A stretch of DNA of 64,000 nucleotides from positions 1 to 64,000 of IMG/VR virus record IMGVR_UViG_3300028887_003391. One strand, given 5' to 3'. The translations under genes and the position numbers were made by a program. The notes under the pieces are model-generated. The model did no database searches. It worked only from the letters and a program-made list of their open reading frames with translations, and was not told the DNA's origin. Shown in pieces: positions 2,746 through 9,854 of this stretch (positions are counted from its first letter, which is position 1; the number at the start of each line of letters is the position of its first letter). Source of the DNA: a virus (taxonomy: Duplodnaviria > Caudoviricetes).

Positions 2746-2758
2746 AAATATAGCAAAA
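2746..2758 (-). promoter_or_regulatory. class E promoter motif TTTTGCTATATTT (extended -10 like); probably leaderless mRNA
   Basis: Exact recurrent intergenic motif; TATATT ends 6 nt before ATG 2740. Confidence 0.7.
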
Positions 2759-2900
2759 GTGCGCGGGCGGGAGTTTACCAGGTCGCCCGGTCCTGCCCCG
2801 CCCTTGTGGAATGAACTATCTCGCCGAACTGCGCCTCGCGACGATAACCACCACCCGGCCCCAAGCCAGGTGTTCTCTCCACTAACGTACTGCGCACCTT
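2756..2900 (-). ncRNA. candidate structured ncRNA 'Z' (about 145 nt, class unknown)
   Basis: Intergenic; closing stem AAGGTGCGC/GCGCACTTT encloses ACCTGGC/GCCGGGT, GGGCGGG/CCCGCCC, ACCGG/CTGGT and GTGGA/TCCAC stems. Confidence 0.45.
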
Positions 2901-2909
2901 ATGGCAATA

Positions 2910-3230
2910 CTAGCCGAAAAGCGGGCCCGGGCCGTCCGCCGGAACGTCCTTGCTCCAGCTTTCGAAGGCCATCTTGGACACCTGGGCGTGCGCGTTCGCC
3001 TTGTTGCGGATTTCGCGGAGTTCGCAAAGTTCCTTGTCGCTATCGAGCATGGCGTTCAGGACGAGCTCGGTCGGCTTCTTCGGGTTCGGGTTCTCCGGCG
3101 TGGGCTTCGGGTTGAGGAATTCGAGAGCCTTTTCCGCACGGCGACGACGATACTTTTCGTCAGCGGCGTTGGAGTCGTTGATGATGCCAAGCATGCGCTC
3201 GCTCTGGATTTTCATTTCTTGATTGTTCAT
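2910..3230 (-). CDS. hypothetical protein
   Basis: 106 aa ORF with GAGG RBS. Confidence 0.7.
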   Translation of the reverse strand: MNNQEMKIQSERMLGIINDSNAADEKYRRRRAEKALEFLNPKPTPENPNPKKPTELVLNAMLDSDKELCELREIRNKANAHAQVSKMAFESWSKDVPADGPGPLFG

Positions 3231-3256
3231 GTTTTACCTCTTGTTGGAAATTAAAG

Positions 3257-3691: not shown

Positions 3692-5442
3692 AGCGCATAC
3701 TCCTTGTCCGCGTTGGAACGGTTCTTGCTCAGGCACCGGACGGCGTAGAACATGTCCTTCACGCCGTATTTAGCCTTACTCTCTGCACGGTGGATCCGCA
3801 TGATGTCATACAGGTTGGACACGTCCGCAAGCGTGATGCGCTTGAAACGCATATACCTGTAAAGCGGGCGGAAACGCCATGCCGCGTAGTTGGTCCTGTC
3901 ATCCTTGGCCTGGATGCCCATGAGCCGCCTCATGTAGATAGACGGATGGGGGAGACCGATCTCGATGACCTCGTCGAAACGACCGGAACGCTTGATGACC
4001 GCGTTGTTGAACAGCTTGGGGTTGTTCATCGTCGCGACGACGGTATAGTTCTTCAGCTCGGCGCCCGTCTTCGGATCCACGCCACCCGGGGCCACACGAC
4101 GCAAATCGGCAAACAACTTGATGAGCTTGCAGGTCTTGGTCTCCTGGGCAGGTTCCTGCGACGGCGTATTGCCTTCGGTAGTCTCGGCAGTAGCACGAGC
4201 CGGCGAATTGGCAAGCAGCTTGTCAACATCGTCCATCATGATGATTACGTTCCGCTGCTGGATGCTGGACACGATGTCCGCGACGAGACCCGGGCTGTCA
4301 ATCGAGTCCATGCAGATCACGAACGCATCCTTGGCCTCCCTCACGAACTTCTCCATGATGTAGGTCTTGCCCGTTCCCGGAACCCCCACGAGCGCGTATG
4401 CGCGTGAGAACCCGCGCCTCATTGAGGTGTGCATCCGGTCGATGATGCCACGGGTATTTGCGTCGAAAATCTCCCCGGGAGGGTCATTGTATGTACGTCG
4501 CATTGAGCTCATCCATGTTTCATGGAGCACCAGCCCGTGCACTTGCGGGTCGATGATGCCGAACGAAATGTCCGGGACATAGTTCGGGGTGGTTTTCTGG
4601 TATGAATCCTCGTTCCAGTAAAGAACGGCAGCTCCGCCCCCGCCAAAACAGATGACCTTTTCCGAAGCCAGTATGCCACGGTTGGCAAGCTGCGCGAACA
4701 CGACAAGCGTATGCTGGAGCTCGGGAACGTCCACGATCACGTAGATATAGTCCCCCTGCACCTTCGACACCTTATATTCCTTGCCATTCCACTCAGGCAC
4801 CCCGTTCTTGTATTTCAGGACGAAATGGAGTTTCTTCTGGTTGGTATAGCTGTACTCCTCGTCCATGCGCAGCTGGTGGGCGGTAGTCACCTCGATACTC
4901 TCGCCAAGTTCCAGCTGGCACATCCGCACGATGAACATGTAGGCCAGCCACACGTCGTGGATATTGCCGTCCATGCGCGGATAGTCCGAAAGAGAAATCG
5001 GAGCGGCTGCCGTCGTCCCGAATACCTTGCGCAGCTTGTCGCGGACATTCATCCCGCCGGCGAACTCGATCTTCGGGACGATGTCCCCCACGAACTGGTC
5101 CAGGAAGACCGCGTTGCGGACGCCCTTCATGAAAGTCGCCACCGGGGTGTTCGGGACGACGATGCTCACCAGCTTCTCGGCAGCATACACGTACTTGGCG
5201 GTAATCGGCATCAGCACCGAGCCGCGCAGCATACGGATGCCGCTGTTCTTGAACCGGCGTTTCAGGATATCCGGGCGGAACAGGGCCTGCATGAGACCCT
5301 TCACCGTGTTGCTCCGGTTTACGTAGATCGGAGGCAAGTCGCGGACAACCTCGTCGAACTTCTGTATGGAGTCGTCGAGCTTGCTCTCGTTCTTCGCCGT
5401 TTCCGGTTCCGGGTGCAATGCGTCACGCTGGGTCTCGCTCAT
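3688..5442 (-). CDS. AAA+ ATPase with N-terminal extension
   Basis: Walker A GVPGTGKT, Walker B IIMMDDVD, sensor ATMN, arginine finger KRSGRFD. Confidence 0.85.
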   Translation of the reverse strand: MSETQRDALHPEPETAKNESKLDDSIQKFDEVVRDLPPIYVNRSNTVKGLMQALFRPDILKRRFKNSGIRMLRGSVLMPITAKYVYAAEKLVSIVVPNTPVATFMKGVRNAVFLDQFVGDIVPKIEFAGGMNVRDKLRKVFGTTAAAPISLSDYPRMDGNIHDVWLAYMFIVRMCQLELGESIEVTTAHQLRMDEEYSYTNQKKLHFVLKYKNGVPEWNGKEYKVSKVQGDYIYVIVDVPELQHTLVVFAQLANRGILASEKVICFGGGGAAVLYWNEDSYQKTTPNYVPDISFGIIDPQVHGLVLHETWMSSMRRTYNDPPGEIFDANTRGIIDRMHTSMRRGFSRAYALVGVPGTGKTYIMEKFVREAKDAFVICMDSIDSPGLVADIVSSIQQRNVIIMMDDVDKLLANSPARATAETTEGNTPSQEPAQETKTCKLIKLFADLRRVAPGGVDPKTGAELKNYTVVATMNNPKLFNNAVIKRSGRFDEVIEIGLPHPSIYMRRLMGIQAKDDRTNYAAWRFRPLYRYMRFKRITLADVSNLYDIMRIHRAESKAKYGVKDMFYAVRCLSKNRSNADKEYAL

Positions 5443-6179: not shown

Positions 6180-6392
6180 TTAAACCTGCTTTACAAATTC
6201 CATCTGCCCGAGGCTCCATACGAACCCCATGGCAAGTAAGTTTTCGATGCGCCACGGAATGTCCGCGGCAATCTGGTCTGCGCTCTCGACAACAACCTTG
6301 TAAACGTCATCGAACACCGACCCGTCCGGTGCAGTGAAGTTCACCTGGACCTTCCAGAGCTGCTTCGGCTTTGCCTGCGACTTCTTAGCCAT
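6180..6392 (-). CDS. hypothetical protein
   Basis: 70 aa ORF packed in operon. Confidence 0.65.
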   Translation of the reverse strand: MAKKSQAKPKQLWKVQVNFTAPDGSVFDDVYKVVVESADQIAADIPWRIENLLAMGFVWSLGQMEFVKQV

Positions 6393-7548
6393 TCTTCCCC
6401 CCTGCCGCGTTAATCATGTCCACACACTCGAAACAGCATTCGTCGATGGACTCCTGGCTGTACTTGATGTCCGGGAGGCTGGACTGATCGTAGGCGACCC
6501 TGACTTCCTCGATGAGGCTATCGACATACTCCATGGCCTTCTCGTAGGACCACATGCCGTTCTTGATGCCAAGGAGGAACTCGCGGTCGGCGGAACGGTC
6601 AACAATCAGCTTGCCGGTCCTGGCGAGGTCGCGGGCAGTCATCAAGATGCGAATGCAGTGCATCATGTTCTTGGAGTCGTAGCCGTGGCCATGCTTCAAC
6701 GTGGTCGCATAGCGCTCGGCATTGCGTTCCTTGATCCATTTGCGATATTCAGTGCGTTCCTTGCACTCCTGGGAATAATGGTCCTGGTTGAAGACGAAAT
6801 GCGCAACCAGCTCGGCATTCTTGGGGATGCTGTTCAGCTGGATTTCACAGCTCTTCTTCACGTCGCGGACGATTCCGTATGCCCAGCGCCATTCATGCTC
6901 CGGGCGTTCAATCACACCGTTGCCCGACGGGATATAGCCCGCCCCCGGATCCTGGTGATACAGCGCATACCCGCCACGGATATGTTCCACCTTCGCCGCG
7001 GCATACCATTTCTGGTCGCGTTCGGTTACTGAACGGCTCGCGAGCCATTCGGGCATGGGCGTAGCCGGGCCTTTGGTATTGTCAAGCACCCAGCAGTATT
7101 CGAGGAGGCTCGGAAGTTCGAGCGGCTTCGGGTTGAAAACCTTCCGGTTGAGACCCTTGGCCTTGCAGATCTGCCCGCGGGCATATTCCACGAAAGGCTT
7201 CTGCGACTGCTTGGAAAGGAAGCCGCCCATCTTGCCGCGGAGCTTTTCGAGGAAATCCTTGCCTTCGATGATGCAGTGGTCCGGGCTGTAGAGGAGGTCA
7301 AGCGCCTGGGCGTTGAACTTCGCAAGTTCCTTGATGAACTTGGTAACTTCCCAGTAAACCTCGTTGTTCTTCTCGTCGGCAATCTGCAGGGCGGGTTCCC
7401 TGCGGAGCCATTCCTTGTACGGGAGCACGTAAACGCCGCGGATGTCAATATCCGACGTCGGCGTGGCAAGCCCGAACGCCTGGGAACCGACGACGCATTT
7501 GACTACGAGCGTTCCGGTCTCACGAACTTTCTTTTCAGTCTCAGTCAT
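6385..7548 (-). CDS. Pol-beta superfamily nucleotidyltransferase (RlaP/YcgL-like)
   Basis: VVGSQAFGLATPTSDIDIRGVY (GS...DxD); C-terminal YDSKNMMHCIR. Confidence 0.85.
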   Translation of the reverse strand: MTETEKKVRETGTLVVKCVVGSQAFGLATPTSDIDIRGVYVLPYKEWLRREPALQIADEKNNEVYWEVTKFIKELAKFNAQALDLLYSPDHCIIEGKDFLEKLRGKMGGFLSKQSQKPFVEYARGQICKAKGLNRKVFNPKPLELPSLLEYCWVLDNTKGPATPMPEWLASRSVTERDQKWYAAAKVEHIRGGYALYHQDPGAGYIPSGNGVIERPEHEWRWAYGIVRDVKKSCEIQLNSIPKNAELVAHFVFNQDHYSQECKERTEYRKWIKERNAERYATTLKHGHGYDSKNMMHCIRILMTARDLARTGKLIVDRSADREFLLGIKNGMWSYEKAMEYVDSLIEEVRVAYDQSSLPDIKYSQESIDECCFECVDMINAAGGKNG

Positions 7549-7572: not shown

Positions 7573-7585
7573 AAATATAGCAAAA
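7573..7585 (-). promoter_or_regulatory. class E promoter motif; T-tract shared with upstream terminator hairpin (7586-7604)
   Basis: Exact TTTTGCTATATTT immediately after hairpin CGCGCGG/CCGCGCG. Confidence 0.7.
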
Positions 7586-7629
7586 ACGCGCGGTCTCCCG
7601 CGCGTCCTTGCTCAACAACATCAAACTTT

Positions 7630-8181
7630 TTACCACGATTGCGAATCGTCGTCAATCAAGTCATAGGTAACTCCGTCCGGCGATGACTTTGTTATGCGGT
7701 CGTCATGCCGCAGCAGTCCGTTCTCGGCATCCCACTTGGCATGGTTCTCCGCAAGAAATTCCGGGGACGGTTCCTGGGGCTTGCCGCCATAGGTGCTTCC
7801 GTAGCGTATTCCACGCCGCGTTATCGTCCTGATGAGCTGGTTTGGCGTCTCCTCGGTTCCATACTCGTCAACGATTTTCAGCGCGTTGGCAAAGATCTGT
7901 TCCCAGTCGCGCAGTGTTTCACACAGTCCCGGAATGTAATGGAGGGAAAATCGCCATCCGCACGAGCTCTTGCCCACATGCAGTGTAAGCGGAGCCCTGG
8001 ACCCGTTACGCTTGCCGGCATGTTCCATCATGTAATTGGCTTGCTGCCTGGCGCGTTCATAAATGGAACCGCTGACCGGGGTAAACAGCCCATACTGCGC
8101 CATAACATTAGAATAAGGGCCACCCTTGATTGCACGGATCAGCCCTCGCTTGCCTATCTTGACGTAATGGTTTGTCCCCAT
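7630..8181 (-). CDS. conserved phage hypothetical protein
   Basis: 183 aa, LHVGKSSCGWRF motif, GAGG RBS. Confidence 0.75.
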   Translation of the reverse strand: MGTNHYVKIGKRGLIRAIKGGPYSNVMAQYGLFTPVSGSIYERARQQANYMMEHAGKRNGSRAPLTLHVGKSSCGWRFSLHYIPGLCETLRDWEQIFANALKIVDEYGTEETPNQLIRTITRRGIRYGSTYGGKPQEPSPEFLAENHAKWDAENGLLRHDDRITKSSPDGVTYDLIDDDSQSW

Positions 8182-8195
8182 GGCGGTTCCTCAAA

Positions 8196-8450
8196 TGGGG
8201 GCGACGTTATCCTTTTCATCCCCGGCCCGTTAGGCCGCCAGGAAGCAACACAAGTCACCCGTCAACCGTTGCCACCGCTTAGCCATCCGGGTTCTGCGAC
8301 ACGCTTGCCGCTCCGCCAGGTGAGGCACCGCAGTTTTGCAGACGCAGCATGGAAAGACGGTGTCCGCTGCCTTAGTGGCATGCCGCTCCACTCGGAGCCG
8401 GTCACCCACATCTACCCCAGTGCTGGAGGGCGGTCCTACCGACAGCAGGA
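8196..8450 (-). ncRNA. candidate structured ncRNA 'Y' (class unknown)
   Basis: Non-coding gap after tmRNA; long-range closing stem 8408-8419/8196-8207, several hairpins, collinear motifs shared with 8912-9188. Confidence 0.55.
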
Positions 8451-8460
8451 CGAAAATTCG

Positions 8461-8824
8461 TGGAGATGAGGGGGTTCGAACCCCTGTCCTAAATACCTCA
8501 TCGCGTCAACCGTATCACCATCAATCTATTAGGGCTCTACCTGAGCCACAAGGGGATCTACCCGAGAGGGGTCCTGGTCCAGTGTAAGATAGCCGATCTA
8601 CGACCAGTAACTCACGGCTAAATCTGGAAGATATGCACTTGGTCCCGGAATTTATTCCTTCCGCTTGTTCCGGGCAATCGAGCCGCTACTGATTAGGCGG
8701 CAGCGCGATAGGCGAATGCACTGTTGTTGGCATTTATGTTTTCGGTCCATTTGTGACGCAGCCATAGACCAACTGCGGGTGAGGTCTTGGTAACTTGATA
8801 CCCAGTCGAAACCAAAGCATCCCC
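8461..8824 (-). ncRNA. ssrA: tmRNA; tag peptide ANNSAFAYRAAA* (8731-8693)
   Basis: 5' GGGGATG pairs with 3' CATCTCC-A with G3:U wobble; TTCGAC near 5' end; T-arm CAGGGG-TTCGAAC-CCCCT; resume context ATAAAT-GCC; tag ends in AAA; 364 nt; CCA not encoded. Confidence 0.95.
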
Positions 8825-8837
8825 AAGATTATTGTAG

Positions 8838-8909
8838 TTGCCCGTGATGGCTTCGAACCACCGAATGGAGGATTCAGAATCCTCTGCCTTACCACTTGGC
8901 TAACGGGCA
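8838..8909 (-). tRNA. tRNA-Gln (anticodon CTG)
   Basis: Cloverleaf: acceptor TGCCCGT/ACGGGCA, anticodon arm GAGGA-TTCTGAA-TCCTC, GGTTCGAAGCC T-arm; CCA not encoded. Confidence 0.95.
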
Positions 8910-8911
8910 AT

Positions 8912-9255
8912 ACAAACACGTCCGACAGCGGGGCAGCACTTGCGGGAACTTCCCGCATACCCCGAAGTCGTCAAATTCATGGGCTGTCCGCCCAAAAAGG
9001 CCCACCTGCCTCGTTTAGGTTTCACCGCGAGTAAGCCGGATCCGCCCACGAGTTACTCCGACAGGAGGGTCTTTTTGGATGGACAGTGCCATCCACAAGA
9101 GGTAGGACGGTAGCCCTCCGGCTAGGTAGCCGGCACCCGTCGTCCCGAATATCTTGTTGCCCGGATAACGTTACCGGGAACGTGCTGTTTTTACGTAACC
9201 GCAAAGTAATCCATGCCGCGTCTTTCAATCTTCAAGAGGTCTCTCGGACCTCTCC
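8912..9255 (-). ncRNA. candidate structured ncRNA 'X' (class unknown)
   Basis: About 340 nt non-coding between promoter and tRNA-Gln; hairpins CCGGCTA/TAGCCGG, TGGATGG/CCATCCA, GAGTAA/TTACTC, GCGGGA/TCCCGC, CCCGG/CCGGG; possible closing stem 9177-9188/8912-8923. Confidence 0.6.
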
Positions 9256-9261
9256 GTAATG

Positions 9262-9274
9262 AAATATAGCAAAA
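9262..9274 (-). promoter_or_regulatory. class E promoter driving the RNA operon
   Basis: Exact motif; GTGACA (-35-like) lies 17 nt upstream of TATATT. Confidence 0.75.
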
Positions 9275-9308
9275 ACTTCAACCGTTGTCACGCCATATTT
9301 CAAAAATC

Positions 9309-9854
9309 TTACAGTATAGCGTTTACCTTGGCCACGATGTCGAACGTCCTCTCTTCCAAGAACGGCCCGGGGCACGCCTTGTTGGCGAACCACTTGTGAA
9401 GCGTGAGGTTCTGGACCAGCTTCCCGTCCTTGTCCGTCTTGCCGACCAGCGACTTGTCGTGCCTCCACAGCAGTTTCGCTATGCCGTTGCGACGGCAGAT
9501 GTCCGCCACCAGATAGATGAGGGACGCGTATGCCGCATCGTTCACCGCATAGGGGGTCTTGTCGTCGCTCGACACCTCTATGGTGACGGCCCGGTGGTCG
9601 TTCGCCGCATCGCTGCTGCACCAGCTCCTGGATTCCTCCGGGACGATGAGCGCCACGCGTCCGTCGCTCCCGATCGCGTAGTTGCATGAGGCCTTGCGCG
9701 AAGCCGGGGCAAACGTGCTGCCGAGCTGCTCCACGGTCCTCTGCCCGGCGGTGCAGTGGATTGTCACCGTGTCGATGGCATGGGTCCGTTTCTTGTTGCA
9801 GTTCGGGGACAGCTGGGTAAACGATACTAGCGGGCTGTTGGAAAACTCGGGCAT
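9309..9854 (-). CDS. N-acetylmuramoyl-L-alanine amidase (Amidase_2; endolysin candidate)
   Basis: VTIHCTA, ASCNYAIG, RSWCSS..ND.RAVTIE and H.WFANKACPG motifs; late-type motif upstream. Confidence 0.9.
   Translation of the reverse strand: MPEFSNSPLVSFTQLSPNCNKKRTHAIDTVTIHCTAGQRTVEQLGSTFAPASRKASCNYAIGSDGRVALIVPEESRSWCSSDAANDHRAVTIEVSSDDKTPYAVNDAAYASLIYLVADICRRNGIAKLLWRHDKSLVGKTDKDGKLVQNLTLHKWFANKACPGPFLEERTFDIVAKVNAIL

Follow-up and report, generated by a model that had tools for sequence, protein, structure and literature searches.

In the window, the whole stretch of 64,000 nucleotides of viral DNA analysed in this study, the largest ORF-free stretch is a 1.1-kb gap bounded by the stop codon of an amidase gene at 9309 and the next start codon at 8181, that of a gene designated P0002. 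ORFs of at least 120 aa leave just 5.4% of the window uncovered; intergenic space is indeed nearly absent elsewhere, as a first-pass annotation of this DNA had remarked. The minus strand of the gap carries a single promoter followed, in this order, by a non-coding segment of about 345 nt (hereafter X), a tRNA-Gln gene, a tmRNA gene, and a second non-coding segment of about 275 nt (Y). ARAGORN and Rfam agreed on the tRNA-Gln(CUG) and on a full tmRNA. The tRNA gene (8837..8909, minus strand) scored 59.7 bits with the cloverleaf model RF00005, which is over the gathering score, and has the anticodon CUG; its CCA end is not encoded. The tmRNA gene (8458..8824, minus strand) scored 92.4 bits with RF00023, against a gathering score of 47, and contains a reading frame for the tag ANNSAFAYRAAA; its 3′ CCA is not fully encoded. 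The single-promoter RNA operon outlined in the first-pass annotation is sound in its anatomy. No SmpB gene was found within the 172-kb record to which the window belongs, a record that represents only about 45% of the genome.

Is this operon found in other phages? Through the protein encoded after Y, near-identical strains of the window (one of them a 436-kb contig) and a second clade (contigs L043 and L044) were reached. In L043 and L044, this flanking protein has 49% identity, and the gene order is preserved: amidase, non-coding segment, tRNA-Gln, tmRNA, non-coding segment, gene. The contigs reached through amidase homologues were all within 2–3% of L043. There are two deep clades, window-like and L043-like, both of rumen megaphages, and all other contigs lie at most about 3% from one of the two. 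Between the clades, the tmRNA is 97.8% identical and the flanking genes 61–82%. Pattern searches gave little beyond these clades. The 17-nt block of X found 120 stretches in JGI metagenomes, of which just one (L139) is real and near-identical to the window; a 16-nt block of X gave six matches in IMG/VR, all by chance, and a two-block X pattern gave one chance match in GTDB genomes. A pattern of the first two motifs described in the first-pass annotation had three chance matches in IMG/VR, in high-GC coding DNA. The tmRNA tag pattern found nothing in IMG/VR or GTDB genomes, and BLAST against phage GenBank sequences gave matches at the tRNA level alone. Remote relatives of P0002 belong to a different and shorter family. 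The nearest amidase homologue of non-phage-like character (73% identity) is on a short contig (L189:76-2850), beside a Fib_succ_major protein (56.6 bits), which may hint at a Fibrobacter host or at where the lysis gene came from.

The promoter (9263..9291, minus strand) is of the sigma-70 type, with a −35 element (9291-9286), a 17-nt spacer, and a TG-extended −10 element (9268-9263). It matches the consensus at 10 of 12 positions in addition to the TG, and transcription would start near 9256. The −10 element is embedded in a 15-nt phage motif that is kept in the L043 clade. The 172-kb record has 14 copies of this motif, where about 0.25 would be expected and shuffled sequences contain 0–1. At the 14 sites, which include 7579-7612 and 2759, the motif often starts within the T-tract of a GC-rich terminator hairpin, forming combined terminator-promoter modules that separate operons. 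The transcript opens with a 5′-terminal hairpin, H1 (9234..9254), which has an 8-bp stem and a conserved 5-nt loop; in the L043 clade, the stem sequence is changed while the position of the hairpin and the loop are the same. A single-stranded block of 10 nt (9225..9234) follows and is invariant in both clades. This block is absent after all other promoters of the 172-kb record, and it is a candidate protein-binding signal.

At the other end of the operon, the gene 3′ of Y is P0002 (7630..8181, minus strand; 183 aa). It is probably co-transcribed with the RNA operon; the interval from the tmRNA to P0002 has neither a promoter motif nor a terminator, and the first terminator past the operon (7612-7579) lies 3′ of P0002. 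An RlaP-type nucleotidyltransferase gene (6385-7548, minus strand) is found just downstream of P0002. In the second clade (L043:1-1301), an RNA ligase gene is located a few genes upstream of the nucleotidyltransferase gene, with genes for thymidylate synthase and DHFR between them. The neighbourhood of the operon is one of RNA-repair and nucleotide-metabolism genes. In metatranscriptomes, contigs span the whole region in two runs, and the tmRNA is covered by contigs from four metatranscriptomes, in one case with 38 nt of trailer; such contigs attest presence in RNA libraries and are no reading of RNA ends or levels. In runs X17 and X19, the X part is uncovered by contigs, which carries no weight as absence.

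It was revealed that the two ends of the operon are complementary. The leader strand (9210..9223, minus strand), directly 3′ of the invariant 10-nt block, pairs with a trailer strand (8340..8353, minus strand) about 860 nt away, just 3′ of the conserved part of Y (Y1, see below). The helix formed by 9223-9210 and 8353-8340 has 14 bp with no mismatch and one G-U pair (ΔG −27.4 kcal/mol), and only 3 of 2000 shuffled sequences gave an equally stable one. In the L043 clade, a helix of 18 bp with a one-base bulge (ΔG −24.6) occurs at the same two sites with different sequences, and again 3 of 2000 shuffles were equal. When the strands of the two clades were compared by reading, 10 of 14 aligned pairs differ on both sides and pairing is kept. 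Covariation, in this helix as in the RNAs described below, amounts to one deep comparison because just two deep clades were found. In a fold of the whole 943-nt transcript, the pairs of the helix have probabilities of 0.86–1.0, and the probability is near 1.0 in a fold of a 1300-nt transcript. The helix is retained across spans of 863–1755 nt, and strains carrying a 900-nt endonuclease insertion have it too. As in the stems of rrn operons, complementary strands flank the unit and their pairing is preserved despite sequence change. The first-pass annotation had suggested a possible closing stem for each of X and Y separately; instead, a single helix encloses the entire operon.

The conserved part of X, here called the X core (8910..9209, minus strand), is a structured RNA of about 300 nt that abuts the tRNA-Gln. 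Its predicted fold comprises two small hairpins (9202-9158), domain A (9182-9091), domain B (9097-8981), whose long and irregular helix varies at the tip, and a hairpin domain at the 3′ end (8979-8915) adjoining the tRNA-Gln. The fold of X is more stable than those of shuffled sequences (z = −4.1). The X segments of the window and the L043 clade match in BLAST with an E value of 1e-29; they share invariant blocks of 15–17 nt at an overall identity of about 65%. RNAalifold predicted 110 pairs, 9 of them with a compensatory change. In domain B, eight pairs are changed on both sides, a number equalled in none of 500 shuffles and far above that of slid controls. Covariation is weak in domain A because its helices are mostly invariant. 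The L043 clade has a longer tip, by 25 nt, on one hairpin of X and about 245 nt of extra structured sequence between domain B and the 3′ hairpin domain (L043:~4016-4240).

Does X encode a protein, or a catalogued RNA? Indels in X (1 nt among strains, 25 nt and about 245 nt between the clades) fall inside its longest ORFs, which excludes a conserved ORF. No reading frame is kept among the relatives in X or Y, and the distal part of Y is missing in the other clade. A search of Rfam 15 at E values up to 10 in both clades found no family for the X core or for the conserved part of Y (Y1, see below); the fragments returned at this threshold were at chance level, the best scoring less than half the gathering score of its family. 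Matches to GOLLD, ROOL, RNase P, SRP, 6S, T-box, introns, and riboswitches were thus lacking in X and Y. The first-pass annotation had treated X as non-coding and had been unable to match it to RNase P, SRP, 6S, or introns; these results bear it out on both counts. I also considered and rejected two derivations. An origin of X or Y from tmRNA gave z values of at most 1.8, and weak "permuted tmRNA" matches in Rfam were caused by the 3′ end of the genuine tmRNA. As for an RNase P-like reading, a CCGGCUUA-like motif in X, reminiscent of RNase P, is lost in the L043 clade and has no Rfam match.

Y is a composite of a conserved RNA, the trailer strand, and a clade-specific untranslated region. Folded as a whole, it is no more stable than shuffled sequences (z = 0.09). 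The description of conserved cores with variable helices, which the first-pass annotation had applied to both segments, is supported for X. The first part, Y1 (8362..8451, minus strand), lies directly 3′ of the tmRNA and is a multi-helix RNA of about 90 nt, in which a closing helix (8451-8441 with 8371-8362) surrounds three inner hairpins. It has 29 pairs, 3 of them compensatory, including one in the closing helix, and is 82% identical between the clades. When the Y segments of the clades were compared, the first 100–105 nt or so matched (BLAST E values of 1e-24 to 1e-26). A covariance model of Y1 found one copy per operon, 3′ of the tmRNA and nowhere else, at 125–154 bits. The remaining part, Y2 (8182..8339, minus strand), is a clade-specific spacer, namely the 5′ UTR of P0002 with a ribosome-binding site at its end. 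It is absent from the L043, L044, L175, and L178 operons, in which the start codon is at most about 12 nt past the trailer strand.

Are X and Y copies of one RNA family? The first-pass annotation had regarded them as diverged copies on the basis of six short motifs, and a coordinate check placed all six motif pairs, in the same order, where it had listed them. The alignment against dinucleotide shuffles that it had named as a control gave marginal values: z = 0.3, 1.6, and 2.7 for the best local alignment of X and Y under three scoring schemes. When 400 real segments of the genome, equal in length, served as controls, 107, 11, and 1 of them scored at least as high, respectively, and the similarity reaches the top 1% of controls under the one permissive scheme, which leaves a small probability for a very old duplication. 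BLAST of X against Y gave nothing past a 14-mer from the region upstream of the promoter, and comparisons across the clades yielded X-X and Y-Y matches with no cross-match. Three covariance models were built: R1 for domain A of X, R2 for domain B, and R3 for Y1. When the whole 64-kb window was searched with filters off and E values up to 10, R1 and R2 had no match in Y and R3 had none in X; in the L043 clade, each model matched its own element only. None of the three matched the second-largest ORF-free gap of the window (2747-3256). Moreover, motifs 3–6 of Y fall in Y2 and are absent from L043 and L044, and in this clade motifs 1 and 2 of Y and 3–5 of X are altered. The motifs that X and Y have in common are therefore not those conserved in orthologues, which undercuts the family reading. 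Descent of X and Y from one structured RNA is not supported and is very improbable; to judge by their sequences, there is no kinship between the X core and Y1, and separate models for the two are called for.

The arrangement resembles bacterial rRNA operons, where long-range helices cut by RNase III close the precursors around 16S and 23S rRNA. In both systems, the 5′ strand of the helix comes after a short hairpin and a conserved block, and tRNA-type genes are embedded, with release by RNase P presumed for the phage. Unlike rRNA operons, the phage unit holds a tRNA, a tmRNA, and two uncatalogued RNAs with no rRNA, and its transcript also carries a protein gene. Its helix has just 14–18 bp, whereas the RNase III stems of rRNA operons are classically longer, and cleavage of the phage helix is putative. 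The tRNA cluster of phage T4 is another likeness: it yields a polycistronic, RNA-only phage transcript that combines tRNAs with structured RNAs lacking an assigned function. Species 1 and 2 of that cluster, of about 120–140 nt, are co-transcribed stable RNAs released by processing. Neither an operon-closing helix nor a tmRNA is known from the T4 cluster, and no sequence relation to it is known. GOLLD and ROOL of Rfam are also large, ornate RNAs, often found beside phage tRNA genes, and ROOL comes from the rumen. Yet their models had no match at E values up to 10 in either clade, the architecture differs, and the X core is smaller, at 300 nt, or about 545 nt when the clade-specific insertion is counted. 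Genes for tmRNA and tRNAs are present in huge phages, as listed by Al-Shayeb et al. (2020, PMC7162821), whose paper gives no account of an operon structure, of structured RNAs at the flanks, or of a closing helix.

Taken together, it is rather likely that the region is a single transcription unit built like a small rRNA operon, with its ends paired. RNA starting at the phage promoter would begin with the hairpin, the invariant 10-nt block, and the 14-nt leader strand. The leader strand would pair with the trailer strand, bringing the ends of the RNA together and enclosing four structured RNAs, namely the X core, tRNA-Gln, tmRNA, and Y1. An RNase III-type enzyme may cut the helix, or the helix may shield the ends of the precursor; in either case the RNA cassette would be separated from the downstream mRNA. 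Cuts by RNase P at the 5′ side of the tRNA and of the tmRNA would then release the X core. Trimming of 3′ ends and addition of CCA would complete the tRNA and the tmRNA; the addition step is expected because CCA is not encoded. Y1 may serve as a 3′ trailer module of the tmRNA precursor. If so, a megaphage places its tRNA together with its ribosome-rescue RNA in a precursor like that of a cellular rRNA operon, with a covarying helix at its ends, and the organisation points to borrowed host machinery for processing and perhaps for antitermination.

The complementary strands might instead be terminal inverted repeats of a mobile DNA cassette, acting at the DNA level. The whole RNA cassette is missing at the same site in amidase-linked relatives in IMG/VR (about 75% protein identity), and its content is plastic: an endonuclease gene has been inserted, tRNA-Gln alleles have been swapped, and there are insertions of 106–245 nt; covariation, moreover, would be expected of inverted repeats as well. 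One-sided changes in the helix strands among strains give G-U pairs on the transcribed strand, which correspond to A-C on the other, an observation that speaks for pairing in RNA rather than for inverted repeats in DNA. The one-base bulge in the L043 helix and the position of the strands within the transcript, right behind the conserved leader block, also argue against repeats, and neither a gene for a transposase or integrase nor a duplicated target site was seen. Hence the DNA-level explanation is improbable. A different proposal concerns the leader and is compatible with, and additional to, the rRNA-operon-like reading: H1 and the invariant block may be a host-derived boxB-boxA antitermination signal of the rRNA type, possibly from Fibrobacter, which recruits host Nus factors for read-through of this heavily structured operon. 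In rrn leaders, the order is hairpin, conserved block, and processing-stem strand, and the phage transcript likewise has a hairpin and a single-stranded block after the start, ahead of the helix strand. The restriction of the block to this one promoter fits such a signal, as does the hint of a Fibrobacter host from the amidase homologue beside the Fib_succ_major protein. However, the invariant block does not match the boxA core of E. coli, and boxA-like letters in the hairpin stem of the window are lost in the L043 clade. Antitermination at this leader is thus possible, if somewhat doubtful.

Within the rRNA-operon-like reading, what would the X core be for? It may be a cis-acting leader alone, an aid to folding or processing or a stabiliser of the precursor, which is degraded after the RNase P cut. 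Its nucleotide identity between the clades (65%) is close to that of the neighbouring gene P0002 (61%) and contrasts with 98% for the tmRNA; insertions of 25 nt and about 245 nt are accommodated within it; and it is restricted to one small phage group. The invariant blocks of 15–17 nt and the compensatory changes speak against a mere leader since they indicate selection on both sequence and structure, and about 300 nt far exceeds what the leader of a tRNA needs. A purely cis-acting role is plausible, though I would not put it as the likelier outcome. The bolder view is that the X core represents a new class of trans-acting phage RNA and Y1 another. Both would be excised by RNase III and RNase P and would act on the translation or RNA-repair machinery of the host; they could be decoys, for instance, or partners in tmRNA or tRNA maturation. 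This is speculative and rather unlikely. If it were true, the operon would be a four-gene RNA toolkit and not two genes plus spacers. In either case, the X core and Y1 are two conserved structured RNAs with no catalogued relative.

The operon is variable in its content. Some strains (L035:1551-2348, L036, and L042) have a low-GC insertion of about 900 nt between the tRNA-Gln and the tmRNA (at about 8825-8836 of the window). The closing helix is retained around the insertion, which contains a 265-aa ORF with an HNH endonuclease motif; it looks like a free-standing homing endonuclease gene within an RNA operon. L044, L175, and L178 have a spacer of 120–160 nt separating the tRNA-Gln from the tmRNA. 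Two dissimilar alleles of tRNA-Gln(CUG), 73 nt and 75 nt in length, occupy one slot (8837-8909 of the window; L035:1379-1453). One allele is shared by the window, L037, and L044, and the other by L035, L038–L041, and L043. This mixing over strains and clades suggests cassette exchange, perhaps linked to the endonuclease. A hairpin-rich insertion of 106–109 nt is found at the 3′ end of the tmRNA (8456-8460 of the window) in L043 (4760-4865) and in a contig of run X18; the latter contig belongs to the window clade, and the insertion is an indel polymorphism. In L003, a huge-phage contig whose amidase is 75% identical, a tRNA-Glu gene is present in place of the cassette of tRNA-Gln and tmRNA. Some 3.6 kb upstream of its amidase gene, the same contig has a HEARO RNA (L003:2113-2339; 125 bits), which is the RNA component of IscB-type elements.
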